From a virus (Duplodnaviria > Heunggongvirae > Uroviricota > Caudoviricetes), in the IMG/VR virus record IMGVR_UViG_2622736468_000001: DNA of 16,017 nt; one strand, given 5' to 3'. Below, one piece after another: positions 1 to 8,595 of the stretch. Below the pieces are notes generated by a model, which searched no databases, was not told the origin of the DNA, and was given only the letters and a program-made list of their open reading frames with translations. Both the position numbers and the translations under genes were made by a program. The first letter of the stretch is position 1; each line of letters opens with the position of its first letter.

Positions 1-1215
1 ATGTTGCTTTCAGACCTTGCTATCCGCCGCGCGAAGCCAAAAGAGAAAGCCTATACACTCAATGACGGCAACGGGCTTTCGTTACTCATTGAGCCGAACG
101 GTTCGAAGGGCTGGCGATTGCGATACAGGTTTGCAGGCAAGCCCAAAATGTTGTCGCTGGGTGTTTATCCTGAGGTGTCCCTTTCTGATGCCAGGACGGC
201 AAGGGATGAGGCCAAAAGGCTTATCGCTGGTGGAGTTAATCCGAGTGAGGTCAGAAAGGCCCAAAAGCGAGAACAGGCGAACAAATGCGGTAACACCTTT
301 GAGGCGATCGCCCGTGAGTGGTATGAAAAACGCCTGGACCGATGGTCTCCCTCATATGCAGAGGAAATGATAGAGACGTTTGAAAAAGACGTTTTTCCGT
401 ACATTGGAGGTAGGCCCATCGCAGAGATTAAGCCGATGGAATTGCTCGCGGTTCTATCCCGTCTTAATGACCGTGGCGCAACTGAAAAATTGCGTAAGGT
501 TCGCCAGCGATGTGGCGAAGTGTTCCGGTACGCAATAATTACCGGACGCGCTGAATATAACCCCGCTCCTGATCTGGCAAGCGCATTTGCACCACACAAG
601 AAAGAGCATTACGCGTATCTGAAAGTTGATGAGCTACCGGAGTTTTTCCGCGTTTTTAATACGTACACCGGAAGCCAGATCGTCAAGCTGGGTATGCGAT
701 TGTTGATTCTTACAGGACTCCGCCCTGGTGAATTACGGCAGGCAGAGTGGCAGGAGATTGATTTTGATAATCGTCTGTGGGAAGTGCCGAAAGAACGAAT
801 GAAAATGCGCCGTTCTCATTGCGTGCCGCTTTCAGAACAGGCGATTGCTATTCTGGAACAACTGAAACACATGACGGGGCAGTATCCGTTTATTTTCCCT
901 GGTCGAATACAGCACAGTAAACCGATGAGTGAAATGGCGATGAACGTGCTTATTCGTCGTATTGGTTATGCAGGGCGTGTTACTGGTCATGGGTTCCGGC
1001 ACACCATGAGTACGATTTTGCACGAGCAGGGGTATAACTCCGCATGGATAGAAACGCAGCTGGCGCACGTCGATAAAAACTCGATCCGTGGCACATACAA
1101 TCACGCGCAATATCTGGACGGACGGCGGGAGATGCTCCAGTGGTACGCCGACTATATGGACTCACTGGAACAGGGCGGTAACGTGGTGCACGGCAAGTTT
1201 GGTGTATGTGCATAA
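1..1215 (+). CDS. int: Tyrosine recombinase / integrase, P4-type; start coincides with the window edge so the N-terminus may be clipped
   Basis: 404-aa ORF. N-terminal arm-binding-like region (AKPKEKAYTLNDGNGLSLLIEPNGSKGWRLRY) typical of P4/CP4-57-type integrases; C-terminal catalytic signature HGFRHT ... RGTYNHAQY (His-x-x-Arg plus catalytic Tyr). Confidence 0.9.
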   Translation: MLLSDLAIRRAKPKEKAYTLNDGNGLSLLIEPNGSKGWRLRYRFAGKPKMLSLGVYPEVSLSDARTARDEAKRLIAGGVNPSEVRKAQKREQANKCGNTFEAIAREWYEKRLDRWSPSYAEEMIETFEKDVFPYIGGRPIAEIKPMELLAVLSRLNDRGATEKLRKVRQRCGEVFRYAIITGRAEYNPAPDLASAFAPHKKEHYAYLKVDELPEFFRVFNTYTGSQIVKLGMRLLILTGLRPGELRQAEWQEIDFDNRLWEVPKERMKMRRSHCVPLSEQAIAILEQLKHMTGQYPFIFPGRIQHSKPMSEMAMNVLIRRIGYAGRVTGHGFRHTMSTILHEQGYNSAWIETQLAHVDKNSIRGTYNHAQYLDGRREMLQWYADYMDSLEQGGNVVHGKFGVCA

Positions 1216-1745
1216 AAACGACTGGACAAGTATACAGATGTATACTAACGTACACGGAAAGCTACAGCTAACATCCTTACAGAGGGTTTTTCACGCAGTT
1301 ATCCGTCATGTATGGGCGCTCTTTGTAACAACGAAGATTGAGTCTTCTACGCAGCTGAAAAGCTGGATGCTCTTTAACAGCCTTTAGTGCTTTCCTGATG
1401 CAGGAAAGAATGGTGATATATGCACTATTACAAAGCATGTAATGATTCATCCATGAGGCGGTGGAGCGCTGGCAAAGTGCTGTTGATCTTTAACATTGAT
1501 GCGGCGGGATGGTTCGTCCCGCAGTGACCGATAGATTTGCTATCGGGAAACATACAACGATTCAAATATGAATCTACGGCGCTGACAAAGCGCAATTGCT
1601 TTCTTGTCCGCCCACCATGTACTGAAAAAACGCTCTTTAAAACTACTGGACGTCACGCCTAATCGTGTGACCCCGCCGAAAGCGGGAATAGCTCTACCTT
1701 GCTGGAGCATACCAACCAAACAATCTGAATTTATCTTATGCAATA

Positions 1746-1775
1746 CCACAACATGTTTTCATGTTGTGGTTTTTG
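1746..1775 (+). terminator. Rho-independent terminator-like hairpin between int and alpA
   Basis: Perfect 10-bp inverted repeat CCACAACATG / CATGTTGTGG with a TTTT loop, followed by TTTTT (1770-1774). Confidence 0.55.
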
Positions 1776-1857
1776 TCGTGTTCGTAATTTGACGCAAATA
1801 AAACTCTTACTAAGCCACAGGAGGGGATTTCCGCGTCAACATTAAGGAGATTGATAA

Positions 1858-2061
1858 ATGGCTAATAACAATTCATTCATCCGTCTTTCTGAAGTTATGC
1901 GCCGTACTGGTTATGGTCGCGCATGGATTTATCGCCTGATCAGCCTGGGGCGTTTCCCTAAACCGGTAAAAATTGGTCCCCGCTCCGTGGCTTTTATTGA
2001 AAGTGAAGTCGACGAATGGATTAACCAGCGTATTGATGCTTCTCGCAACAACGCCGCGTAA
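1858..2061 (+). CDS. alpA: AlpA / Vis-like small DNA-binding regulator (excisionase-type helix-turn-helix)
   Basis: 67-aa ORF with AAGGAG 8 nt upstream of the ATG; sequence (FIRLSEVMRRTGYGRAWIYRLISLGRFPKPVKIGPRSVAFIESEVDEWI) matches the AlpA / prophage CP4-57 regulatory family. Confidence 0.85.
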   Translation: MANNNSFIRLSEVMRRTGYGRAWIYRLISLGRFPKPVKIGPRSVAFIESEVDEWINQRIDASRNNAA

Positions 2062-2125
2062 TAATCTTTTGGGTGGGGGTATTCTCCCCCAGCACTAAAC
2101 CTGATCCGATAGCAGGAGTTTTTCA

Positions 2126-2764
2126 ATGAAACGTCCGAATATGCTCGTACAGGGGCAGGGCTTCGTTCAGCCCGAAGAACTGAGCCAACAGTATTTCGCC
2201 GCAATTATTCCGGTAATTTCCGGCAATGAGATTATTGCTGACGGAATAAATAAAAATGCACTCACCGCGCCGGAAGTGTTTCCTTCTGGCGGTGAGCCTG
2301 TAACCACTTCACAGGCTATCGCCCGATTTTTCAGAAAGGATCACGATAAGGTTGTTAACCGGATTGAAAACCTGTGTTGTTCTGCTGAATTTTTAACCCG
2401 CAATTTTCGGCGGGTAAAATTTGAGCATAAGGGGCGCGTATTGAAAGCCTACGAAGTCACCAAAGACGGCTTCGTGTTTTTAACAATGGGATTTACCGGA
2501 AAAAAAGCGGCTGCATTCAAAGAGGCATACATTGCGCAGTTTAACCGCATGGCTAACTGGATAGCAGAGAGATGTGAGGCCAAAGCTGAGATGCGCTCTA
2601 TGGGGGATGCCATGAAGGGATACATTGAGCGCACTGGAGATACTCAACACGGTCATGCTTATAACAACGAATGTACTTTCATTGCGCGCCTTGTATTAGG
2701 GATGCACCCGCCTGTATGGGCCAAAAAAACGGCATCCCATCAAAAAAAGTTCGTGACCATATGA
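2126..2764 (+). CDS. Rha-family phage regulatory protein, N-terminal reading frame; the family-typical C-terminus continues in the -1 frame to 2916
   Basis: AGGAG Shine-Dalgarno; core VTTSQAIARFFRKDHDKVVNRIENL ... YEVTKDGFVFLTMGF resembles the Rha domain. The -1 frame (to 2916) encodes VRDHMTADQLALLAYLESRNCALLDMDMPTPERKERL, which resembles the usual Rha C-terminus. Confidence 0.7.
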   Translation: MKRPNMLVQGQGFVQPEELSQQYFAAIIPVISGNEIIADGINKNALTAPEVFPSGGEPVTTSQAIARFFRKDHDKVVNRIENLCCSAEFLTRNFRRVKFEHKGRVLKAYEVTKDGFVFLTMGFTGKKAAAFKEAYIAQFNRMANWIAERCEAKAEMRSMGDAMKGYIERTGDTQHGHAYNNECTFIARLVLGMHPPVWAKKTASHQKKFVTI

Positions 2765-3222
2765 CCGCTGATCAACTGGCGTTGCTCGCGTATCTGGAAA
2801 GCCGTAACTGTGCGCTACTGGATATGGATATGCCAACGCCAGAACGTAAAGAACGTCTCACCGAATTAGCCCAACGCTGGCTGGTCCGTCGCCTGGGAGA
2901 ACGTGAACATGCCTGACATCCGCAACGCTGCCGCCCTGTACATCGATACTGCGGATAAGTTCGCACAGGTGAGCATCAACCATGCTGATTACATGCGCCA
3001 TATCGTGAGCCATTTCGCCGCTGAGCGCATGAAACACGTTAAGCATTATCAGAAGGAGGCTTTATCAAATTATCGCGCTGGTGGCCCTGTACGGCGCGAA
3101 TATCCGCATGATGCAGGAATGGCAGGCAAAACAAAGGCGACCACGAAAGGGTCGCCAGTGGAGATAAAGGAAATCAAGCGCATTATCCACAATGCCATAT
3201 CTGAGGCTGGTGGACAATGCTA

Positions 3223-3501
3223 TCAGCCTGGCGGGCGATTTTTGGTTGCTTTTAGCCGCCGTGGGTATTTCCTGAGAAACTCTTCAAGTGCAAATTTTTT
3301 ATCTCTTGTATGCGATGCCTTTGACTCGTCGTCACATGTTTTTCCTCGTCTTATCCTGTTTTCAATAAAACGGGAAGCGGCCTTTTTATTCAGCGATGAA
3401 TCAATGGGGCTGCTCCCTGTTTGCTGCTCGACAATGGCATCCATGAGTAGTTGGTGTTGTAGTTGTCGTAAAAATTTCTCATCTTCTGGTGGTAAATCCA
3501 T
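3223..3501 (-). CDS. Hypothetical small protein, paralogue A (92 aa, MDLPPEDEKFLRQLQ...KKFALEEFLRKYPRRLKATKNRPPG)
   Basis: ATG at 3501 (minus) preceded by AGGAAA; C-terminal 22 residues conserved with the ORF at 3598-3777, with several synonymous third-position differences between the copies. Confidence 0.4.
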   Translation of the reverse strand: MDLPPEDEKFLRQLQHQLLMDAIVEQQTGSSPIDSSLNKKAASRFIENRIRRGKTCDDESKASHTRDKKFALEEFLRKYPRRLKATKNRPPG

Positions 3502-3597
3502 ACTTATTTCCTGTACAGCGGAGCGACGCAGCACCTCACACCACGGCGCTGATGGTTGTTATTCGTTTTATGGAGTCAGAGAAGCAAAAGCGGATCG

Positions 3598-3777
3598 CTA
3601 TCGGTTTTTAGGCGAGATTAATCGCCGTGGGTATTTGTCCAGAAATGCCTCAAGCGCAAATCGTTTTGGTCTGGTGAGAGGAGAGGGATTAAGCAAAGAC
3701 TCGCGTTCCAGGCGTACTTTTTCGCGCTGTCGCTCAAGTATGGATAATGCGATTTCCTGTAGTTCTTCATTTGTCAT
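3598..3777 (-). CDS. Hypothetical small protein, paralogue B (59 aa, MTNEELQEIALSILERQREKVRLERESLLNPSPLTRPKRFALEAFLDKYPRRLISPKNR)
   Basis: Translated by hand from the minus strand (under the 60-aa cut-off of the ORF track); C-terminus KRFALEAFLDKYPRRL matches paralogue A. Confidence 0.4.
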   Translation of the reverse strand: MTNEELQEIALSILERQREKVRLERESLLNPSPLTRPKRFALEAFLDKYPRRLISPKNR

Positions 3778-4060
3778 TGTCTGTACCCGTAAAGCGGTGC
3801 GCTGTAGTACCTCATATCACAGCGCAGGTATTTTTTATGGTTGTAATTTGCGTGATGATTCAGGTCGCTTTGCGACACACTGCATAAACATAAATAACGT
3901 GATGTTATTATGTGCTTTCAAAGAAAACGCAGGTATTTTTCGCACAAACTTCTCTCGCAACACATCCGACCACTTAAGCAAAAAAGCGGCATATACTGAG
4001 GCTATCCCTTATAAAACGGGGATCGGGATTACCACCCCGCTGGAGTTAGAGGCGATACAC

Positions 4061-4081
4061 GACGCGCCAGCGTCTTTTTTT
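4061..4081 (+). terminator. Possible intrinsic terminator (short GC stem plus T7 run)
   Basis: GACGC (4061-4065) / GCGTC (4070-4074) stem with a 4-nt loop, followed by TTTTTTT (4075-4081). Confidence 0.35.
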
Positions 4082-4246
4082 GTATCGGCGCACACGCACA
4101 CCTCAACAATGGTGGGCTGTATGGGGCCGACTTCGGTCGGGCTGGTTTCCTCTAACGCCAGTTGTGGTAACCCTGTACAGTCCACCGCCAGCGAGCTTAC
4201 CACCTCCGGCGGTGGGTATAATCCCAAAGTCAGAGGAGCCTTTCAC

Positions 4247-4417
4247 ATGGCTGTATCCGCACGCCCTTACTTTGTCTGGCGCTTTATGCAGTGCCTGACA
4301 GGTAGCATTGCAATATTCACCGTTACCGCTGCCACTGAGCGCGAAGCACGCGCGCAGCTGCCGCACGCACATCTGATTTTTGTCGCCCGTATCCGTCAGG
4401 AGGTGACTCATGCTTAA
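4247..4417 (+). CDS. Hypothetical small protein (56 aa), first gene of the operon leading to the primase
   Basis: GAGGAG 8 nt upstream of the ATG at 4247; a TATAAT hexamer at 4217-4222 lies just upstream; stop overlaps the next start. Confidence 0.45.
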   Translation: MAVSARPYFVWRFMQCLTGSIAIFTVTAATEREARAQLPHAHLIFVARIRQEVTHA

Positions 4418-4664
4418 AACCTTCCGTGTTTTTTCCCGTGCCGTTAATGCACGCGGCTATACCGTTGGCATCACGCAGAACGTGAAGGCCGAAAACGTCC
4501 AGGCTGCAATCAGCACAGTAATTAACAAATCAGCTAAAGCCGGTTTATCCGGCGTAATTATCCACGCCGTTCATGAAATTAAGGGGTGCAGTAATGCAGG
4601 AAATGACACTGGCAGAAGCCTCACTGAAAGCGCAACAGGTCGAAGTAATCAGCCGCATGATTGA
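4410..4664 (+). CDS. Hypothetical small protein
   Basis: AGGAGG 7 nt upstream of the ATG at 4410; the N-terminal ~57 aa look protein-like, the C-terminal tail is low complexity and overlaps the next gene, so the true end is uncertain. Confidence 0.45.
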   Translation: MLKTFRVFSRAVNARGYTVGITQNVKAENVQAAISTVINKSAKAGLSGVIIHAVHEIKGCSNAGNDTGRSLTESATGRSNQPHD

Positions 4665-4785
4665 ACGCAACCACGAAGAAATAGACGACCATGACCTTTC
4701 TGTTATTGCGGGACTTATCAAACAGCTTTCCAGCAATGTGGCGGTGTGGTTAATGACGGAGGAAGAAAAACGCGGCGAACAATAA
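4594..4785 (+). CDS. Hypothetical small protein (63 aa, helical/charged)
   Basis: AAGGGG 7 nt upstream of the ATG at 4594; the track ORF starting at 4573 is probably an upstream extension. Confidence 0.5.
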   Translation: MQEMTLAEASLKAQQVEVISRMIERNHEEIDDHDLSVIAGLIKQLSSNVAVWLMTEEEKRGEQ

Positions 4786-4841
4786 CGGCAAAAATAAACG
4801 GGAAATAAAGATTAAGACAACTCCTTCAGGAGATTAACTCA

Positions 4842-5141
4842 ATGACATCAAAAAATTCTGGCTTAACTGCCAGTGGCAAAGCTCAACCTGAATTTATGCG
4901 CGGGGATATTTACCGCGATAAGTACGGCGGCATCGTGACAATTATCAGCGTGAGAGAACGCCGTATCGCCTACCGCCGTGAAGGCTATGACTATGACTGC
5001 GTAATGCCACTGTATCAGTTCGCGCGTGATTTTTCTCTGGTGCAGTCCGTGCCGCGCGGTAAGCCAGCCAGCAACGCAAAAGCAGAGGCGAACATCCGAA
5101 AGATGAAAAACATGATTAACGCATTCAGGGGCAAGAAATGA
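4842..5141 (+). CDS. Hypothetical protein (99 aa), translationally coupled to the primase gene
   Basis: AGGAG upstream of the ATG at 4842; stop overlaps the primase start in an ATGA arrangement (5138-5141). Confidence 0.6.
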   Translation: MTSKNSGLTASGKAQPEFMRGDIYRDKYGGIVTIISVRERRIAYRREGYDYDCVMPLYQFARDFSLVQSVPRGKPASNAKAEANIRKMKNMINAFRGKK

Positions 5142-7276
5142 AAAGCGCACCGAATTTAAAAAAACAGCCGAAAGACAAAATGACCGAAGTCATTATCTTT
5201 GCGGGTAGTGATGCCTGGGCACATGCGAAAGAGTGGAGCGAATGGGCCGGAAAGCATATTGCAGCAGATGATACACCGCCCGTTATTCTTGGACCGAAAC
5301 AACTGGCGAGCCTGGAAGACACGAAAATCATCGATAAAGGGCGCAATTACGTGCGCGTTTATCGTGCTGGTGAAATATCAGAGACAGCACTTTTACAGAT
5401 AGCAACACTGCTTGCGGTGGCGGGTGTAAAGGAGGCACGCTGCTACAGCGGCTTTGTTGACCAGCAGCCGGAGGACTGGACACCGCGCATGGCTGGACTG
5501 AAGGATGATGCGGAACGCGGCAACTGCCTGGTGATCAATCTTCCGGCAAAGACAAATTTCACCGGAAATTATGATGACGAATTAAAACCCCGCGTTGAAT
5601 GCCGTCCTGATGGCGTTTACTGGGTGACGCCAAAGGTTGATAAGCAATCTGGCGAAATTATCCGTCCGTTCGAATGGCTGTGTTCTTCCGTTGAATTACT
5701 CGGTTCAGGTGTCATTGGTAACGAGCATTACCGCGTGATGCGCTGGACAGATTCGACAACAAATCGGCTTGTCACTATGGCTGTGCCTTGCTGCGGAATA
5801 GGCGACACTGACGGCTGGCGATTACTGAAAGCCAACGGGCTTAAAGTCACGACAAACGGAAAACACAGGATCCCCCTGGCTGACTGGATGCAGTTAGGCG
5901 GACAGCATGAGGAATGGCACTTAAGCCCGAAGGCTGGCTGGCATTTTGGCGCGTACATCATGCCGGACGGTACGGTTATCGGCGAATCTGACAAGCCCGT
6001 TTTGTTTACCGGAAAAAGTGCCGCGATTAACGGTTATTCCGTGGCAGGAACGGCGGAAAGCTGGCGCGACAGCGTGGCGCGGCTGGCTGGTGGCAATCCG
6101 TTCATGATGCTGGGTATAGCGACGTCATTATCCGCGCCATTAGTCGGGCTGACAGGCGCTGATGGTTTTGGCGTGCATTTTTTCGAGCAATCCACAGCAG
6201 GCAAGACCACAACGCAGAGCATCGCGTCGAGCTTGTGGGGCGATCCTGAGGCGCTGCGATTAACCTGGTACGGAACGGCGCTGGGGATAGCTAACGAAGC
6301 AGAAGCACACAATCACGGACTCCTTCCACTGGACGAGATAGGGCAGGCAGGAAGCCCCCGTGACGTGTACGTATCCTCATACACTTTGTTCAATGGATTC
6401 GGAAAATTACAGGGGGCAAAGGACGGCGGCAACAGAGAGCTGAAAAACTGGCGGACCGTTGCTATCAGCACCGGAGAGGTGGATATCGAAACATACCTCA
6501 AAACGTCGGGGATAAAAGTTAAGGTCGGGCAACTTGTGCGCCTGCTCAATATCCCGATTCAAAAAGCCACGCAGTTACACGAATACAGCAACGGAAAGGA
6601 TCACGCTGACGCATTGAAGGCGGCATGGCAAGAAAACCACGGCGCAGCGGGGCGTGAGTGGATTAAATGGCTTGCGGAGAACCAGCAGGAAGCTAAGGAC
6701 GCGGTTAGAGAGAGCCGTGCACGCTGGCGAAATATCATTCCAGACAATTACGGTGAGCAGGTCCACCGCGTGGGTGAACGTTTCTCCATACTGGAGGCCG
6801 CGCTTGTGCTTTCCGGTCATGTAACTGGCTGGTCCGTGCAGGAATGCCGCGATGCAATTCAGTATGTATTTAATGCCTGGGTAAAAGAATTTGGCACGGG
6901 CAACAAGGAACACAAACAGATCATTGAGCAGGCAGAGGCGTTTCTTGCTGCCTACGGCATGAGCCGTTTTGCGCCCGTTGATTATGACCCAGCCAGCCTG
7001 CCGATTTCTGAGCTGTACGGCTACAGGGATTCGGGAAGCCGTTACGATGAACCATTGTTGTTTTACGTATTATCGGAGCCGTTTAAATCGAAAGTAGCGG
7101 AAGGCTTCAACAAGGATACCGTTGCAAAAATACTCCACGAAGCTGGAATGCTGAAACGACCAGAGAGCGGGAGAGGATGGAAAATCAAGACCCCACGCCT
7201 TAAGAACCTTAATGGAGCGCAATTATGGGCCTACGGGATGTTGTTCGCTAATCACGATGAGGAGGGAAGCGATTAA
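5138..7276 (+). CDS. Replication initiator: primase/helicase-like protein (pri-rep; P4 alpha / DUF927-like)
   Basis: 712-aa ORF with a Walker-A-like STAGKTTTQS motif mid-protein; sits immediately upstream of an iteron-rich AT-rich origin, the arrangement seen in P4-like and PICI replicons. Family assignment is from recall, not a search. Confidence 0.8.
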   Translation: MKSAPNLKKQPKDKMTEVIIFAGSDAWAHAKEWSEWAGKHIAADDTPPVILGPKQLASLEDTKIIDKGRNYVRVYRAGEISETALLQIATLLAVAGVKEARCYSGFVDQQPEDWTPRMAGLKDDAERGNCLVINLPAKTNFTGNYDDELKPRVECRPDGVYWVTPKVDKQSGEIIRPFEWLCSSVELLGSGVIGNEHYRVMRWTDSTTNRLVTMAVPCCGIGDTDGWRLLKANGLKVTTNGKHRIPLADWMQLGGQHEEWHLSPKAGWHFGAYIMPDGTVIGESDKPVLFTGKSAAINGYSVAGTAESWRDSVARLAGGNPFMMLGIATSLSAPLVGLTGADGFGVHFFEQSTAGKTTTQSIASSLWGDPEALRLTWYGTALGIANEAEAHNHGLLPLDEIGQAGSPRDVYVSSYTLFNGFGKLQGAKDGGNRELKNWRTVAISTGEVDIETYLKTSGIKVKVGQLVRLLNIPIQKATQLHEYSNGKDHADALKAAWQENHGAAGREWIKWLAENQQEAKDAVRESRARWRNIIPDNYGEQVHRVGERFSILEAALVLSGHVTGWSVQECRDAIQYVFNAWVKEFGTGNKEHKQIIEQAEAFLAAYGMSRFAPVDYDPASLPISELYGYRDSGSRYDEPLLFYVLSEPFKSKVAEGFNKDTVAKILHEAGMLKRPESGRGWKIKTPRLKNLNGAQLWAYGMLFANHDEEGSD

Positions 7277-7677
7277 CTACGCGTATATAAGATGAAAAAA
7301 TGTTGCCTCAGTTGCCTCAAACAGTAATAAATATATATATGTGATTGATTTATATGTTTTATTTCTGTTTTTACTGAGGCAACAATTGCTCATTTTGAGG
7401 CAACAATTACCCATTTTGAGGCAACAACTGCCCATTTTGAGGCAACACGGCTGACAGGTTTTGTTTGTCTGAACGGAACCAACGTGATGTTGCCTCAAAT
7501 ACCCCCTATTGTTGCCTCAAATCGACATGATGTCGCCTCAATTTTTTTGTGATTATTAATCAAATCAATACGTTAAGACGTTTGAGGCAACTGAGGCAAC
7601 TGAGGCGACTGAGGCGACACGTTTTTCCTATATATATAAAGCGTGTGAATGATGTGATGCCTGGAAGGAGACGATTC
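7277..7677. repeat. Putative origin of replication: iterons (TTGAGGCAAC / GTTGCCTCAA) plus AT-rich tracts
   Basis: Four copies of TTGAGGCAACA at 22-bp spacing (about 7394-7449), three inverted copies GTTGCCTCAA(A) (7488-7540), four tandem 9-mers CTGAGGC(A/G)A (7581-7616), two more inverted copies near 7304-7321, and AT-rich stretches around 7326-7375 and 7627-7640. Confidence 0.7.
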
Positions 7678-8094
7678 ATGATCAAAAAAACAAGTGAAAC
7701 GGAATCTGTTGTGAGGTTCGTATCGGTACGAGGCAGAGCCACGCTTTATATACCTGACGAACATCTGCATCACTGCGATGAAAAACATATCCCGATCCTG
7801 ATTGTCTGGAAGCGAACGGTATACGCCGATGTGACATGGCTGAATGATTCGCTGATGTTGATACACCGTGACCTGTTTGAACGTGAAGAGTTCCGGCGGG
7901 ATATTGAAGAGCGGGCAGAAAAAATCTATGAGAAATATTCAGCAAACAGCAAAAGATCCGCACGGGCAATCGCTCACCATTTCATGACGCTGTATGACCT
8001 GAAAGCGGAAGATGCAGAAAAAGCGGCATGTGATTTATTCGATATGACAATGGGGATTATCCAGGAGTACCGGAACAAGGAGCGCAGACCATGA
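7678..8094 (+). CDS. Hypothetical protein (138 aa), coupled to the downstream ssb
   Basis: AAGGAG 8 nt upstream of the ATG at 7678; the longer track ORF from 7549 merely translates the iterons. Stop overlaps the ssb start (ATGA at 8091). Confidence 0.65.
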   Translation: MIKKTSETESVVRFVSVRGRATLYIPDEHLHHCDEKHIPILIVWKRTVYADVTWLNDSLMLIHRDLFEREEFRRDIEERAEKIYEKYSANSKRSARAIAHHFMTLYDLKAEDAEKAACDLFDMTMGIIQEYRNKERRP

Positions 8095-8540
8095 CAGCAC
8101 AGATTGCAGCTTACGGGCGGCTGGTGGACGACCCGCAGGTAAAACAGACCAGCAAGGGAACAGCGATGACGCTGGCGCGTATGGCGGTATCACTGCCATG
8201 CAGTCAGGCACAGGACGGACAGGCGACGTTATGGCTATCAGTCCTGGCATTTGGTAAGCAGGCCGACGCGCTGGCGAGACATGAAAAAGGCGACCTTATC
8301 AGCGTGGCGGGTAACATGCAGATCAGCCAGTGGACCGGACAGAACGGGGAAACACGGCAGGGCTGGCAGGTTATCGCTGACAGCGTAATCAGTGCCCGTT
8401 CGGTGCGCCCTGGCGGGAAGCGGGGGCAACAGGGGAAGGCGACTGAAGCACTGGAAAGAGCAAAACGACAGACCGGACAGCAGGGAAATCAGCCACCAGC
8501 GGGAGGTGATGACCCGTTCTCTGACGATATTCCGTTCTGA
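8091..8540 (+). CDS. ssb: Single-stranded DNA-binding protein
   Basis: OB-fold-like core alignable by eye to E. coli SSB (WLSVLAFGKQADALARHEKGDLISVAGNMQISQWT), glycine/glutamine-rich linker, and the canonical acidic tail DDIPF at the C-terminus. Confidence 0.85.
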   Translation: MTAQIAAYGRLVDDPQVKQTSKGTAMTLARMAVSLPCSQAQDGQATLWLSVLAFGKQADALARHEKGDLISVAGNMQISQWTGQNGETRQGWQVIADSVISARSVRPGGKRGQQGKATEALERAKRQTGQQGNQPPAGGDDPFSDDIPF

Positions 8541-8565
8541 ATGACAGCACAACATGAACCAGCAG

Positions 8566-8595
8566 ACCGACCGTTCACCAACAGAGGTAATTCAA
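8566..8595. repeat. 30-bp direct repeat, left copy (GACCGACCGTTCACCAACAGAGGTAATTCA)
   Basis: Identical 30-mer recurs at 11573-11602; the two copies bracket the methyltransferase cassette. Confidence 0.85.

Follow-up and report, generated by a model that had tools for sequence, protein, structure and literature searches.

A C4/CI-type antisense RNA with flanking targets ahead of the replication operon of a PICI-type Escherichia coli island

The closest described counterparts of the locus analysed here are the immunity systems of satellite P4 and of phages P1 and P7, with their small antisense RNAs CI and C4. The CI/seqA/seqC mechanism of P4 has been described, as has an RNA of ~80 nt that is processed from the region downstream of IsrK (PMC4825925). 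Processing of the C4 precursor by RNase P is mentioned in a secondary account that cites Hartmann 1995 (PMC2190699). Gram-negative PICIs share a four-zone layout, and matches to C4 and isrK have been reported before in the Bro zones of these satellites (PMC10111431); the module as such is already known. The window is the whole 16,017-nucleotide stretch of the viral record IMGVR_UViG_2622736468_000001. The region ahead of its replication operon probably holds, with a likelihood of about 0.8, the immunity module of a PICI-type island, organised as in P4 immunity and P1 immI (Table 1).

By its gene layout, the element is a Gram-negative PICI-type satellite island of E. coli beside tRNA-Gly. A tRNA-Gly gene lies just upstream of the island in the matching genome, and the co-oriented genes fall into the four zones of such islands: Int with AlpA, a Bro-network gene, primase/SSB, and late genes. 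The Icd-like ORF is the first gene of the operon and is followed by DUF4222, the DUF927 primase-helicase and SSB; its stop codon (4415-4417) overlaps the next ORF, whose ATG is at 4410. The kil ORF of P4 matches the same NCBIfam Icd-like family, NF033153, with 76.1 bits, and a BLASTP comparison of the Icd-like ORF with the annotated P4 'cI' ORF gave no match. An identical copy of the module is carried by 14 E. coli strains, S1-KEN-03-A among them. The Rha gene of the island is frameshifted and KilA-N is partial, and because of this decay the module could be idle.

Table 1. Features of the island and its RNA module, in coordinates of the window.
Feature	Position	Strand	Details
Integrase	1-1215	+	
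AlpA	1858-2061	+	
Rha-family ORF	2126-2916	+	
Long open frame, 504 codons	2903-4417	+	In frame with the Icd-like ORF; spans leader, C4 and targets
Predicted -10 TATACT of leader/C4/icd promoter	3992-3997	+	Aligns with the P1 P1c4 -10
IsrK/SeqA-like leader RNA	4004-4081	+	Hairpin 4004-4023, a1 hairpin, b1, intrinsic terminator
Target a1 UUACCAC	4029-4035	+	Loop of hairpin CGGG/CCCG 4024-4027/4036-4039; exact complement of a'
Target b1 GUUAGAGG	4045-4052	+	Exact 8-nt complement of b'; duplex -13.7 kcal/mol
Weak intrinsic terminator	4061-4081	+	GACGC/GCGTC 4061-4065/4070-4074, 4-nt loop, seven T 4075-4081
C4/CI-type antisense RNA	4105-4192	+	Limits from the Rfam RF01695 model
Closing helix, 17 bp	4110-4126/4171-4187	+	Rfam alignment; encloses hairpins 1 and 2
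Predicted mature C4-type RNA	~4111-4190 (~79-80 nt)	+	Ends inferred from mature P1 c4 (L005 1344-1420) and tRNA-like GCCA 4187-4190
Hairpin 1, 5-bp stem, UUCG loop	4127-4140	+	Rfam C4 model
Hairpin 2	4141-4145/4158-4162	+	12-nt loop 4146-4157; Rfam alignment
b' CCUCUAAC	4149-4156	+	Hairpin 2 loop; complementary to b1 and b2
a' GUGGUAA	4164-4170	+	Single-stranded junction 4163-4170; complementary to a1 and a2
Alternative a2 hairpin	4180-4189/4208-4217	+	Watson-Crick core 4182-4189/4208-4215, CCACCGCC/GGCGGTGG, plus two G-U pairs
Target a2 UUACCAC	4197-4203	+	Loop of alternative a2 hairpin; complementary to a'
TATAAT hexamer	4217-4222	+	24 nt upstream of ATG 4247
Target b2 GUCAGAGGAG	4229-4238	+	Overlaps Shine-Dalgarno GAGGAG 4233-4238 of the Icd-like ORF
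Icd-like ORF, 56 aa	4247-4417	+	First operon gene; NCBIfam NF033153, 53.4 bits
DUF927	5138-7276	+	
SSB	8091-8540	+	
Q antiterminator	12581-12979	+	

The initial annotation had suggested that a small RNA analogous to P4 CI, acting by RNA-RNA pairing, lies at this position, and had named a covariance-model scan for C4/CI-type families as a check. The scan bears the suggestion out. The segment 4105-4192 matches the Rfam C4 antisense RNA family RF01695 with 77.7 bits, well above the gathering score of 45 (E = 4e-14 for the whole window), and the match is full-length, covering model positions 1-87. RF01695 also detects P4 CI (74.9 bits) and P1 c4 (68.8 bits), and a custom covariance model of C4 gives 87.1 bits at the same place. 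The minimum free energy of the segment is -42.7 kcal/mol (z = -4.15), a stability reached in none of 200 shuffles, and the corresponding fold is the three-way junction of the Rfam C4 model. On these matches, the RNA is real and an ordinary member of the known C4 (P1)/CI (P4) family of immunity RNAs. Its sequence is also compatible with processing by RNase P, with GCCA coming after the helix and a 5' end in register with that of mature P1 c4. The 5-bp UUCG stem had been placed exactly and is hairpin 1 of the Rfam model; what dominates the fold, namely the 17-bp closing helix and hairpin 2, had been missed. An unfiltered search of the window with the custom model found no second C4 copy, the next best match scoring 9.5 bits. 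Short repeats at 3079-3092 and 3365-3380 look like parts of the module and were rejected as degenerate copies of the RNA. The stretch from 3850 to 4246 had been described as structured and non-coding: structure beyond chance is indeed present, but 3850-4003 is a divergent intergenic region without any structured element, almost identical in an O157 relative, and the plus-strand frame runs open through the whole stretch.

Structures of homologues were compared in a covariance-model alignment, because parsing of minimum-free-energy folds recovered only half of the genuine ones. Across 72 distinct homologues, the C4 stems have 99.8% of their cells paired, both sides have changed in 16 of 27 pairs, and the covariation score is 0.599, against at most 0.124 in controls with slid partners. 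The alignment was fitted to the covariance model, which favours pairing, yet the structure is still supported because the slid controls reach only 51% paired or less.

Complements of the a' and b' elements of the RNA were found on both sides of it when the flanks were searched, as had been proposed: a1 and b1 lie upstream, a2 and b2 downstream, and all four co-vary with the RNA in homologues. Pairing of b2 with the b' loop involves nine of ten positions around an exact core at 4232-4237 (duplex -13.7 kcal/mol), with one mismatch and one G-U pair, and b2 is equivalent in position to the annotated P1 b2 site. In scans of the window alone, complementarities of 7-8 nt and duplexes of -9 to -14 kcal/mol are not rare; chance 7-9-mers are many, and ~7% of windows attain -10 kcal/mol. 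Because chance complementarities are this common, the support for the targets comes from position and co-variation. The latter was assessed in 94 unique loci with 29 variants of a' and 52 of b', by comparing each RNA with its own flank and with those of other loci. The own flank holds a perfect complement, 6 nt or longer, for a1 in 92/94 loci, a2 in 92/94, b1 in 67/94 and b2 in 85/94; among mismatched pairs of RNA and flank the frequencies are 9%, 5%, 11% and 15%, respectively.

Two relatives provide a natural set of compensatory changes. In a near-identical O157 island (L127), whose flanks are 91-100% identical, a' reads AGGCCAA in place of GUGGUAA and both a1 and a2 have changed to match, while b is kept; the b' of the window recurs there beside a different a'. 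A targeted search recovered the a' of the window in two further viral contigs, L128 and L129, of which L128 was the one read: it retains a, and its b', b1 and b2 have all changed. No viral contig matched the exact combination of a' and b'. The 94 loci contain 65 combinations of a and b, and the pair of the window is unseen in the other 93. It is proposed that the a and b sequences set specificity, and with it hetero-immunity.

A further structure is the alternative hairpin that holds a2 in its loop. The 8-bp GC stem reported at 4181-4211 is this hairpin; the stem is real, and the coordinates were slightly off (Table 1). Folded alone it has -19.4 kcal/mol (z = -3.6), and it is also present in P4 and P1. 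Among 32 loci selected by a2 offset alone, 86.6% of the cells are paired, against 27-62% with slid partners, and both sides have changed in 6 of 10 pairs. These pair counts replaced an own-versus-other test, since the latter (78% vs 44%) discriminated the hairpin poorly, the arm being conserved family-wide. Covariation among homologues, which the initial annotation had named as the evidence to look for, is present for the C4 stems and the a2 hairpin alike. One stretch serves both as 5' arm of the a2 hairpin and as 3' arm of the closing helix, and the hairpin and the C4 fold are for this reason mutually exclusive.

The promoter of leader, C4 and icd likely sits upstream of the leader, with TATACT as its predicted -10. 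This hexamer lines up with the -10 (TATAGT) annotated for the P1 promoter P1c4/P51b and resembles the TATAGT of P4 PLE, and the Rfam isrK model begins 7 nt 3' of it. No full sigma-70 site came out of a promoter scan, and TATACT has no recognisable -35. The initial annotation gave the positions of TATAAT and of the ATG at 4247 exactly; the hexamer is probably not a promoter. Were it the promoter of the operon, the hairpins would be a terminator or insulator and no RNA would act in trans. Such an arrangement seems very unlikely: a perfect -10 hexamer does stand 24 nt before the ATG, but it has neither a -35 nor an extended -10 and is not matched in the scan; P1, a P1-like phage, Stx phages and L128 lack it, and the four co-varying targets and the Rfam match would be left unexplained.

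The leader scores 48.3 bits against Rfam isrK (RF01394), slightly below the gathering score of 50, which the leaders of P4 (60.8 bits) and Stx phages (61.8 bits) exceed. It does not reach the threshold of the c4-a1b1 motif RF03163 (18.5 bits vs 46.7), and the a1 and b1 sites are nonetheless there. Its predicted fold differs from the isrK model and is not unusual (z = -1.6), and the leader is colinear with those of P1, P4 and Stx phages. The possible terminator noted earlier at its end holds up, with a stem and seven T in the sequence. A scan of 1.4 kb found this one site where shuffles give 1.3, and because shuffles yield as many, the weight of the terminator comes from conservation: a run of at least five T lies within 80 nt upstream of the C4 RNA in 64 of 73 related loci, and the site aligns with the Rfam isrK terminator.

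The same leader raises the possibility of positive control of the IsrK type: it would be the main regulator in trans and would activate translation of the downstream ORFs, through remodelling of the read-through mRNA or sequestration of the C4-like RNA, as shown for IsrK of Gifsy-1. Acting in trans, IsrK raises orf45/anrP more than 100-fold, and the ~80-nt STnc1160 lies downstream of it (PMC4825925); the leader of the window combines an isrK-like match and a terminator with a1 and b1 sites that are perfect decoys for a' and b'. Against this stand the score below the family gathering score and the equivalent P4 site, seqA, which works in cis, in termination; moreover, such control is compatible with C4-type repression, to which it adds an anti-repressor layer. 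It is possible, if on the improbable side, that the leader acts in this way.

By analogy with the described systems, the RNA most likely pairs with its own mRNA and so holds the replication genes of the island in the off state. Family membership, structure, the four target sites, their co-variation, the Icd-like first gene and the overlap of stop and ATG are observed; the steps that follow are modelled on work with P1, P4 and Gifsy-1. Transcription would start at ~4004, and the weak terminator would stop most transcripts, yielding a short IsrK/SeqA-type leader with a1 and b1. Read-through transcripts would include the tRNA-like three-way-junction RNA, and excision by RNase P at ~G4111 on the 5' side and near CCA 4188-4190 on the 3' side would release a stable RNA of ~80 nt. 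Acting in trans, its a' and b' would bind a2 and b2 in the mRNA of the same operon, the b'/b2 duplex covering the Shine-Dalgarno sequence of the Icd-like ORF. Blocked translation of this ORF would abolish translational coupling to the next ORF and open the RNA to Rho-dependent termination, and the DUF4222, DUF927 primase-helicase and SSB genes would thereby be kept off. Pairing with a1 and b1 in the leader may reinforce early termination, as in P4; alternatively, the free leader may titrate the repressor, as proposed for IsrK.

RefSeq/PGAP annotates a 502-aa 'Icd-like protein', WP_001625862.1, across the RNA, in the frame that is open from 2903 to 4417. A locus that is only protein-coding, with incidental hairpins and no functional RNA, would account for this call and for the frame in 65 of 92 related loci, where it stays open for 48 codons or more downstream (the other two frames do so in 22 and 5), counts which are not independent since the loci are mutually related. 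However, matches to protein families are confined to residues 457-499; residues 1-362 gave no tblastn match in phages and residues 1-116 no match in Pfam or PHROG. Relatives differ by changes that compensate one another in the RNA and are not synonymous, a 1-nt difference in the T run breaks the frame in the O157 relative, whose annotated Icd-like gene has 56 aa, and P1 c4 lies in no open frame. The sequence upstream also probably encodes a conserved 62-aa protein on the opposite strand. Taken together, a purely coding role is hardly credible.

The long frame resembles eta/kil of P4, where an open frame (8812-8168) is nested in the same way and ends in kil. Where it crosses the RNA module, if not over its full length, the frame of the window may be the counterpart of P4 eta. 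A dual use would then combine the repressor RNA with a long eta-like ORF translated from an upstream promoter that is activated by AlpA or a helper; ribosomes crossing a1/b1, C4 and a2/b2 would override immunity and the replication operon would be expressed. The nested P4 frame, whose function is described in PMC10111431, and the excess of loci with this frame open speak for the idea, as does the start of the long ORF, which overlaps the end of the Rha-family ORF by 14 nt here and in O157. Speaking against it, the upstream ~1 kb of the frame is non-protein-like in appearance and overlaps a minus-strand gene that is probably real, the frame is broken in O157 and the loci counted are related. 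Over 2900-3990, homologues of a minus-strand 59-aa ORF favour the minus strand; the synonymous/non-synonymous comparison with the O157 island did not separate the strands and so did not decide the matter, and tblastn of either candidate ORF against phages gave no match. A dual use is a tentative reading, more doubtful than probable.

Still less probable is the joint case in which the a2 hairpin and the closing helix compete for the 3' arm of the latter, each primary transcript serving as repressor or messenger, and the eta-like frame, which runs across the RNA in most members of the family, overrides immunity when translated from an upstream promoter. Neither layer is known to have been described as general in the C4/CI family. 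If true, they would, together with a and b elements that reassort independently, amount to a combinatorial, recombination-driven immunity code common to satellites and Stx phages.

Recognition of the module is above all of practical value. RefSeq, in annotating the identical island, omits both the RNA and the leader, and other E. coli genomes carry the corresponding RNA beneath CDSs named "ash family" or "Rha family"; with the module recognised, these gene calls and that of the 502-aa Icd-like protein can be corrected. The likely control point of the replication operon of a PICI-type island is located, and an antisense RNA with four targets provides a clean natural case of compensatory evolution. 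Switches of specificity between near-identical islands bear on the hetero-immunity of co-resident satellites and Stx phages. Knowledge of the C4/CI family itself is unchanged by these findings.

P4 and the island both have an RNA of the RF01695 family, an isrK-like leader (seqA in P4) with a terminator upstream, targets of the a and b type on both sides, a conserved a2 hairpin, an Icd-like first ORF past the RNA (kil in P4) and an open frame across the entire module, and in both the element has integrase and AlpA and a primase operon that the module controls in P4 and would control in the island. Unlike P4, the island has no counterpart of sid, psu and delta in the RefSeq annotation of its identical copy, on which it falls outside the P4-like satellites, and its replication protein is of the DUF927 type, not the alpha type. 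Its leader also lies nearer to the RNA, with a1 at -75 instead of -159, its a and b sequences differ, and its promoter lacks a -35.

The module is likewise colinear with immI of P1/P7, for which the order a1, b1, c4, a2, b2, icd has been annotated experimentally in P1. Shared features are the 7-nt a and 8-nt b, the placement of b2 at the icd ribosome-binding site, an Icd that is 50% identical and a tRNA-like end for RNase P. P1 differs in controlling the antirepressor gene ant, whereas the operon of the island is a replication operon; the C1 operator and two promoters are features of P1, and its c4 is outside any open frame. Gifsy-1 IsrK/STnc1160/orf45-anrP (PMC4825925) has, as predicted for the window, a short terminated leader and a read-through transcript processed to an RNA of ~80 nt, and the AUG of 'orf45' corresponds to an AUG in the 5' arm of the C4 fold. 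In Gifsy-1, however, IsrK activates downstream translation, an antirepressor lies downstream and no Icd-like ORF is described. Stx-converting phages such as P13374 and VT2phi_272 are ~86% identical over exactly 4007-4241, but there the module precedes Rha/antirepressor genes and the a and b specificities are unlike those of the window. Finally, Gram-negative PICIs (PMC10111431) have the same arrangement of Int and AlpA, Bro gene and RNA, primase and SSB, and late genes, with 'immunity RNAs' in the Bro zone.

The structured stretch upstream of the replication operon encodes a C4/CI-type antisense RNA. C4 antisense RNA (RF01695) at 4105-4192 (+) is the sole Rfam match at gathering thresholds in the whole window; it is full length (E = 4e-14), and its score of 77.7 bits exceeds the gathering score (45). 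The same model matches P4 CI (74.9 bits) and P1 c4 (68.8 bits). The initial annotation, which had suggested a small RNA like the P4 immunity RNA and a covariance-model scan for it, thus made a real finding and interpreted it correctly, since one model matches the window RNA and P4 CI alike. The RNA is already known, as a member of a curated, experimentally characterized family previously reported in this genomic context. The predicted fold of the 88-nt segment is exactly the model structure (-42.7 kcal/mol, z = -4.15). The 5-bp stem closed by UUCG is present at 4127-4140 as described; the largest elements, a 17-bp closing helix (4110-4126 / 4171-4187) around this hairpin and a second hairpin, had been missed. 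No second C4 copy was found in the window by an unfiltered search with our own covariance model. A permissive Rfam scan of the region also returned isrK (RF01394) at 4004-4080 (48.3 bits, just under the gathering score of 50) and c4-a1b1 at 3991-4043 (18.5 bits against 46.7). An isrK-type match of 60.8 bits likewise lies across the P4 seqA leader.

Scanning viral contigs for the pattern yielded 120 loci, and a covariance model derived from 41 sequences recovered 105 copies in 100 sources. In the alignment fitted to this model, 99.8% of stem cells are standard pairs and the covariation score is 0.599, versus at most 0.124 for controls with slid partners. The hairpins do covary in homologues, with 16 of 27 stem pairs changed on both sides.

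In the P1 record, promoters, a1, b1, the 77-nt c4 RNA, a2, b2 and icd are annotated on an experimental basis, and the window is colinear with every one of these elements. The single-stranded elements a' and b' of the C4 RNA each have an upstream target (a1, b1) and a downstream target (a2, b2; see table), 9 of the 10 nucleotides of b2 pairing with the b' loop. Within the window alone these matches are not significant: many chance 7-9-mers are complementary to the C4 RNA, and the duplex energies (-9 to -14 kcal/mol) lie inside the upper tail of the background. The evidence for the targets must therefore be comparative. Among 94 unique loci, which carry 29 distinct a' and 52 distinct b' sequences, exact complementarity over 6 nt or more was sought in the flanks of each locus and in mismatched RNA/flank pairs. 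Sites were found in the locus's own flank for a1 in 92 (9% of mismatched pairs), a2 in 92 (5%), b1 in 67 (11%) and b2 in 85 (15%). The flanking complementarity that the initial annotation had proposed to seek therefore exists, and it co-varies with a' and b' across loci.

The most telling comparative case is a natural compensatory set in a near-identical island of E. coli O157:H7 ATCC 43889. Its flanks are 91-100% identical to the window and its b elements are the same, with a' changed to AGGCCAA and both a1 and a2 to UUGGCCU; compensated changes also occur in the UUCG hairpin and at the inner end of the closing helix. Conversely, one viral contig (L128) retains the a elements of the window with b', b1 and b2 all altered. 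The a and b elements are therefore separate, reassorting specificity determinants. None of the other 93 loci shows the a/b combination of the window, and a search of viral contigs gave no exact match to it. Some viral contigs hold two tandem C4-type modules (L100, at 7024-7114 and 7893-7983; L019, L020 and L082, 650-870 bp apart; L055), and the copies differ in both a' and b' in every case.

Features of the window, with target elements of the C4 RNA
Feature	Position	Strand	Sequence or remark
Integrase	1-1215	+	
AlpA	1858-2061	+	
Rha-family gene	2126-2916	+	frameshifted
Paralogous small ORFs	3223-3534, 3598-3777	-	shared C-terminal motif FALExFLxKYPRRL
a1	4029-4035		UUACCAC, in loop of small hairpin
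b1	4045-4052		GUUAGAGG, in leader
Hairpin 2	4141-4145 / 4158-4162	+	12-nt loop
b'	4149-4156		CCUCUAAC, in hairpin 2 loop
a'	4164-4170		GUGGUAA, junction strand
a2	4197-4203		UUACCAC, downstream of C4 RNA
b2	4229-4238		GUCAGAGGAG, over SD GAGGAG, 8 nt before ATG 4247
Icd-like ORF	4247-4417	+	NCBIfam NF033153, 53.4 bits
Two small PHROG families	between Icd-like ORF and DUF4222	+	
DUF4222	4842-5141	+	
DUF927 primase/helicase-type protein	5138-7276	+	
SSB, cytosine methyltransferase, Q antiterminator	after DUF927	+	

The 8-bp GC stem described earlier does exist as the octamers CCACCGCC / GGCGGTGG, with its coordinates corrected slightly to 4182-4189 / 4208-4215. This stem shares an arm with the C4 closing helix (its 5' arm being the 3' arm of the helix), and a2 sits in the loop. 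Alone, this a2 hairpin is predicted at -19.4 kcal/mol (z = -3.6); in a 118-nt precursor the C4 fold is predicted to win. The hairpin is present in nearly all relatives with varying arms (CUAUCGCC/GGCGAUAG in P4). In 32 loci selected by a2 offset alone, 86.6% of cells are paired, versus 27-62% with slid partners, and 6 of 10 pairs have changed on both sides. The shared arm and the conserved pairing make the a2 hairpin a conserved alternative, mutually exclusive with the mature RNA fold, which may switch the primary transcript between "repressor" and "messenger" fates.

The TATAAT (4217-4222) and ATG (4247) noted initially are present, but TATAAT was rejected as the operon promoter: it lacks a -35 and has no promoter-scan match, and comparison with P1, a P1-like phage, an Stx phage and L128 shows no conservation. 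TATACT at 3992-3997, 7 nt ahead of the isrK match, aligns with the annotated -10 of the P1 promoter P1c4 and resembles the -10 of P4 PLE. It has no recognizable -35, so the leader promoter may be weak or activator-dependent. The possible terminator at 4061-4081 holds up: a GC-rich hairpin of 5 bp precedes a run of seven T, and a terminator scan also detected it. The terminator is flanked by CGAUACA (4053-4059) and UGUAUCG (4081-4087), which are able to pair around it and could form a structure after read-through; P4 has the same arrangement with other sequences (GCGACA / UGUCGC). Mature P1 c4 begins at the GG of AUGGUGGG, a tRNA-like GCCA (4187-4190) directly follows the closing helix, and the C4 precursor is processed by RNase P, according to a report citing Hartmann 1995 (PMC2190699). 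The mature RNA is therefore predicted at ~4111-4190.

A 504-codon open frame (2903-4417, +) shares the reading frame of the 56-aa Icd-like ORF and spans the leader and the C4 RNA as well as the intergenic region and the minus-strand ORFs. In RefSeq it appears as a single 502-aa "Icd-like protein". Several results speak against an ordinary protein-coding gene: the family match is limited to residues 457-499, residues 1-362 have no tblastn match in phages, and in the O157 relative a 1-nt difference in a T-run breaks the frame, the Icd-like gene being annotated there as 56 aa. In other E. coli genomes the RNA sits under CDSs named "ash family" or "Rha family" proteins. The frame may instead be an analogue of P4 eta, a nested ORF over the CI region; translation of eta, driven by an upstream promoter, reportedly prevents termination (PMC10111431). 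The eta frame is likewise open, from 8812 through PLE, seqA, CI and seqC into kil. Moreover, 65 of 92 unique loci keep at least 48 downstream codons open in the frame that the AUG in the RNA's 5' arm defines (22 and 5 loci for the other two frames), counts that are not independent because the loci are mutually related. An eta-like translational bypass as a second layer, rather than an artefact, is plausible but on balance doubtful.

Compared with the O157 island, the window contains a tandem duplication of ~366 bp, which accounts for the two paralogous minus-strand ORFs. Their transcription diverges from that of the immunity module. The 59-aa ORF has E. coli homologues of 61-62 aa, hypothetical proteins without family assignment; at 76-85% identity with conservative replacements, they indicate that the small ORFs noted initially are probably real, a synonymous/non-synonymous test being undecided. 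The divergent intergenic region (3778-4003, 226 bp) is nearly invariant between the window and O157 islands. Only one position differs from the O157 island across 3717-4003, which includes the start of a minus-strand ORF, against 8-17% divergence in flanking DNA, a pattern suggestive of either recent exchange or strong constraint.

In P4, CI is processed from the primary transcript and pairs with seqA and seqC, causing premature termination (PMC4825925; PMC10111431). Modelled on P1 and P4, the processed C4 RNA would pair with a2 and b2 and stop translation of the Icd-like ORF, whose stop (4415-4417) overlaps the start of the next ORF (ATG at 4410). Lost coupling to that ORF and Rho-dependent polarity would then silence the replication operon. 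The IsrK/SeqA-like leader might act in cis, aiding termination at 4061-4081, or as a free short RNA that titrates the repressor. In Gifsy-1, a homologous IsrK RNA activates downstream translation, and a ~80-nt processed RNA (STnc1160) lies just downstream. The joint reading, in which the a2 hairpin acts as a switch, an eta-like bypass is general and a and b form a combinatorial specificity code, is given roughly a one-in-four chance.

Window 1-13473 is 99.8% identical to an island adjoining tRNA-Gly in E. coli S1-KEN-03-A. In 14 complete E. coli genomes there is a segment of 99% identity or more, at a single site in each of the two listed (H56 and H57). A direct repeat of ~130-180 bp (90-95% identical), with copies just after the DUF927 gene (7469-7597) and near 13473, where the S1-KEN-03-A match ends (13255-13426), could relate to an origin or recombination boundary. 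A 14-nt inverted repeat (AATACCACAACATG / CATGTTGTGGTTTT) accompanied by a T-run (1742-1773, +) precedes alpA by about 90 nt; one of its arms is a 9-nt complement of the a'-containing C4 junction, probably by chance (~0.2 such sites expected per window). Taken between the predicted transcription start and the ribosome-binding site (4007-4241), the module is ~86% identical to that of many Stx-converting phages and shares 74% identity with the c4-icd region in a P1-like phage. The Stx phage P13374 (NC_018846; L003) has a strong Rfam match to sRNA-Xcc1 (4021-4104, 79.6 bits; gathering score 53) ~0.9 kb downstream of its C4 module, within the annotated antB2 antirepressor ORF (3986-4132) and just upstream of the ORF26 antirepressor gene.

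Gram-negative PICI satellites have been described as having four zones (integration, Bro-network genes with immunity RNAs, replication, late), a layout that the gene order here fits; several of these satellites are matched by the Rfam C4 and isrK profiles (PMC10111431). P4 kil (65 aa), the first ORF after CI, is likewise a member of the Icd-like family (76.1 bits); the arrangement in the window is therefore that of P4, in another kind of satellite.
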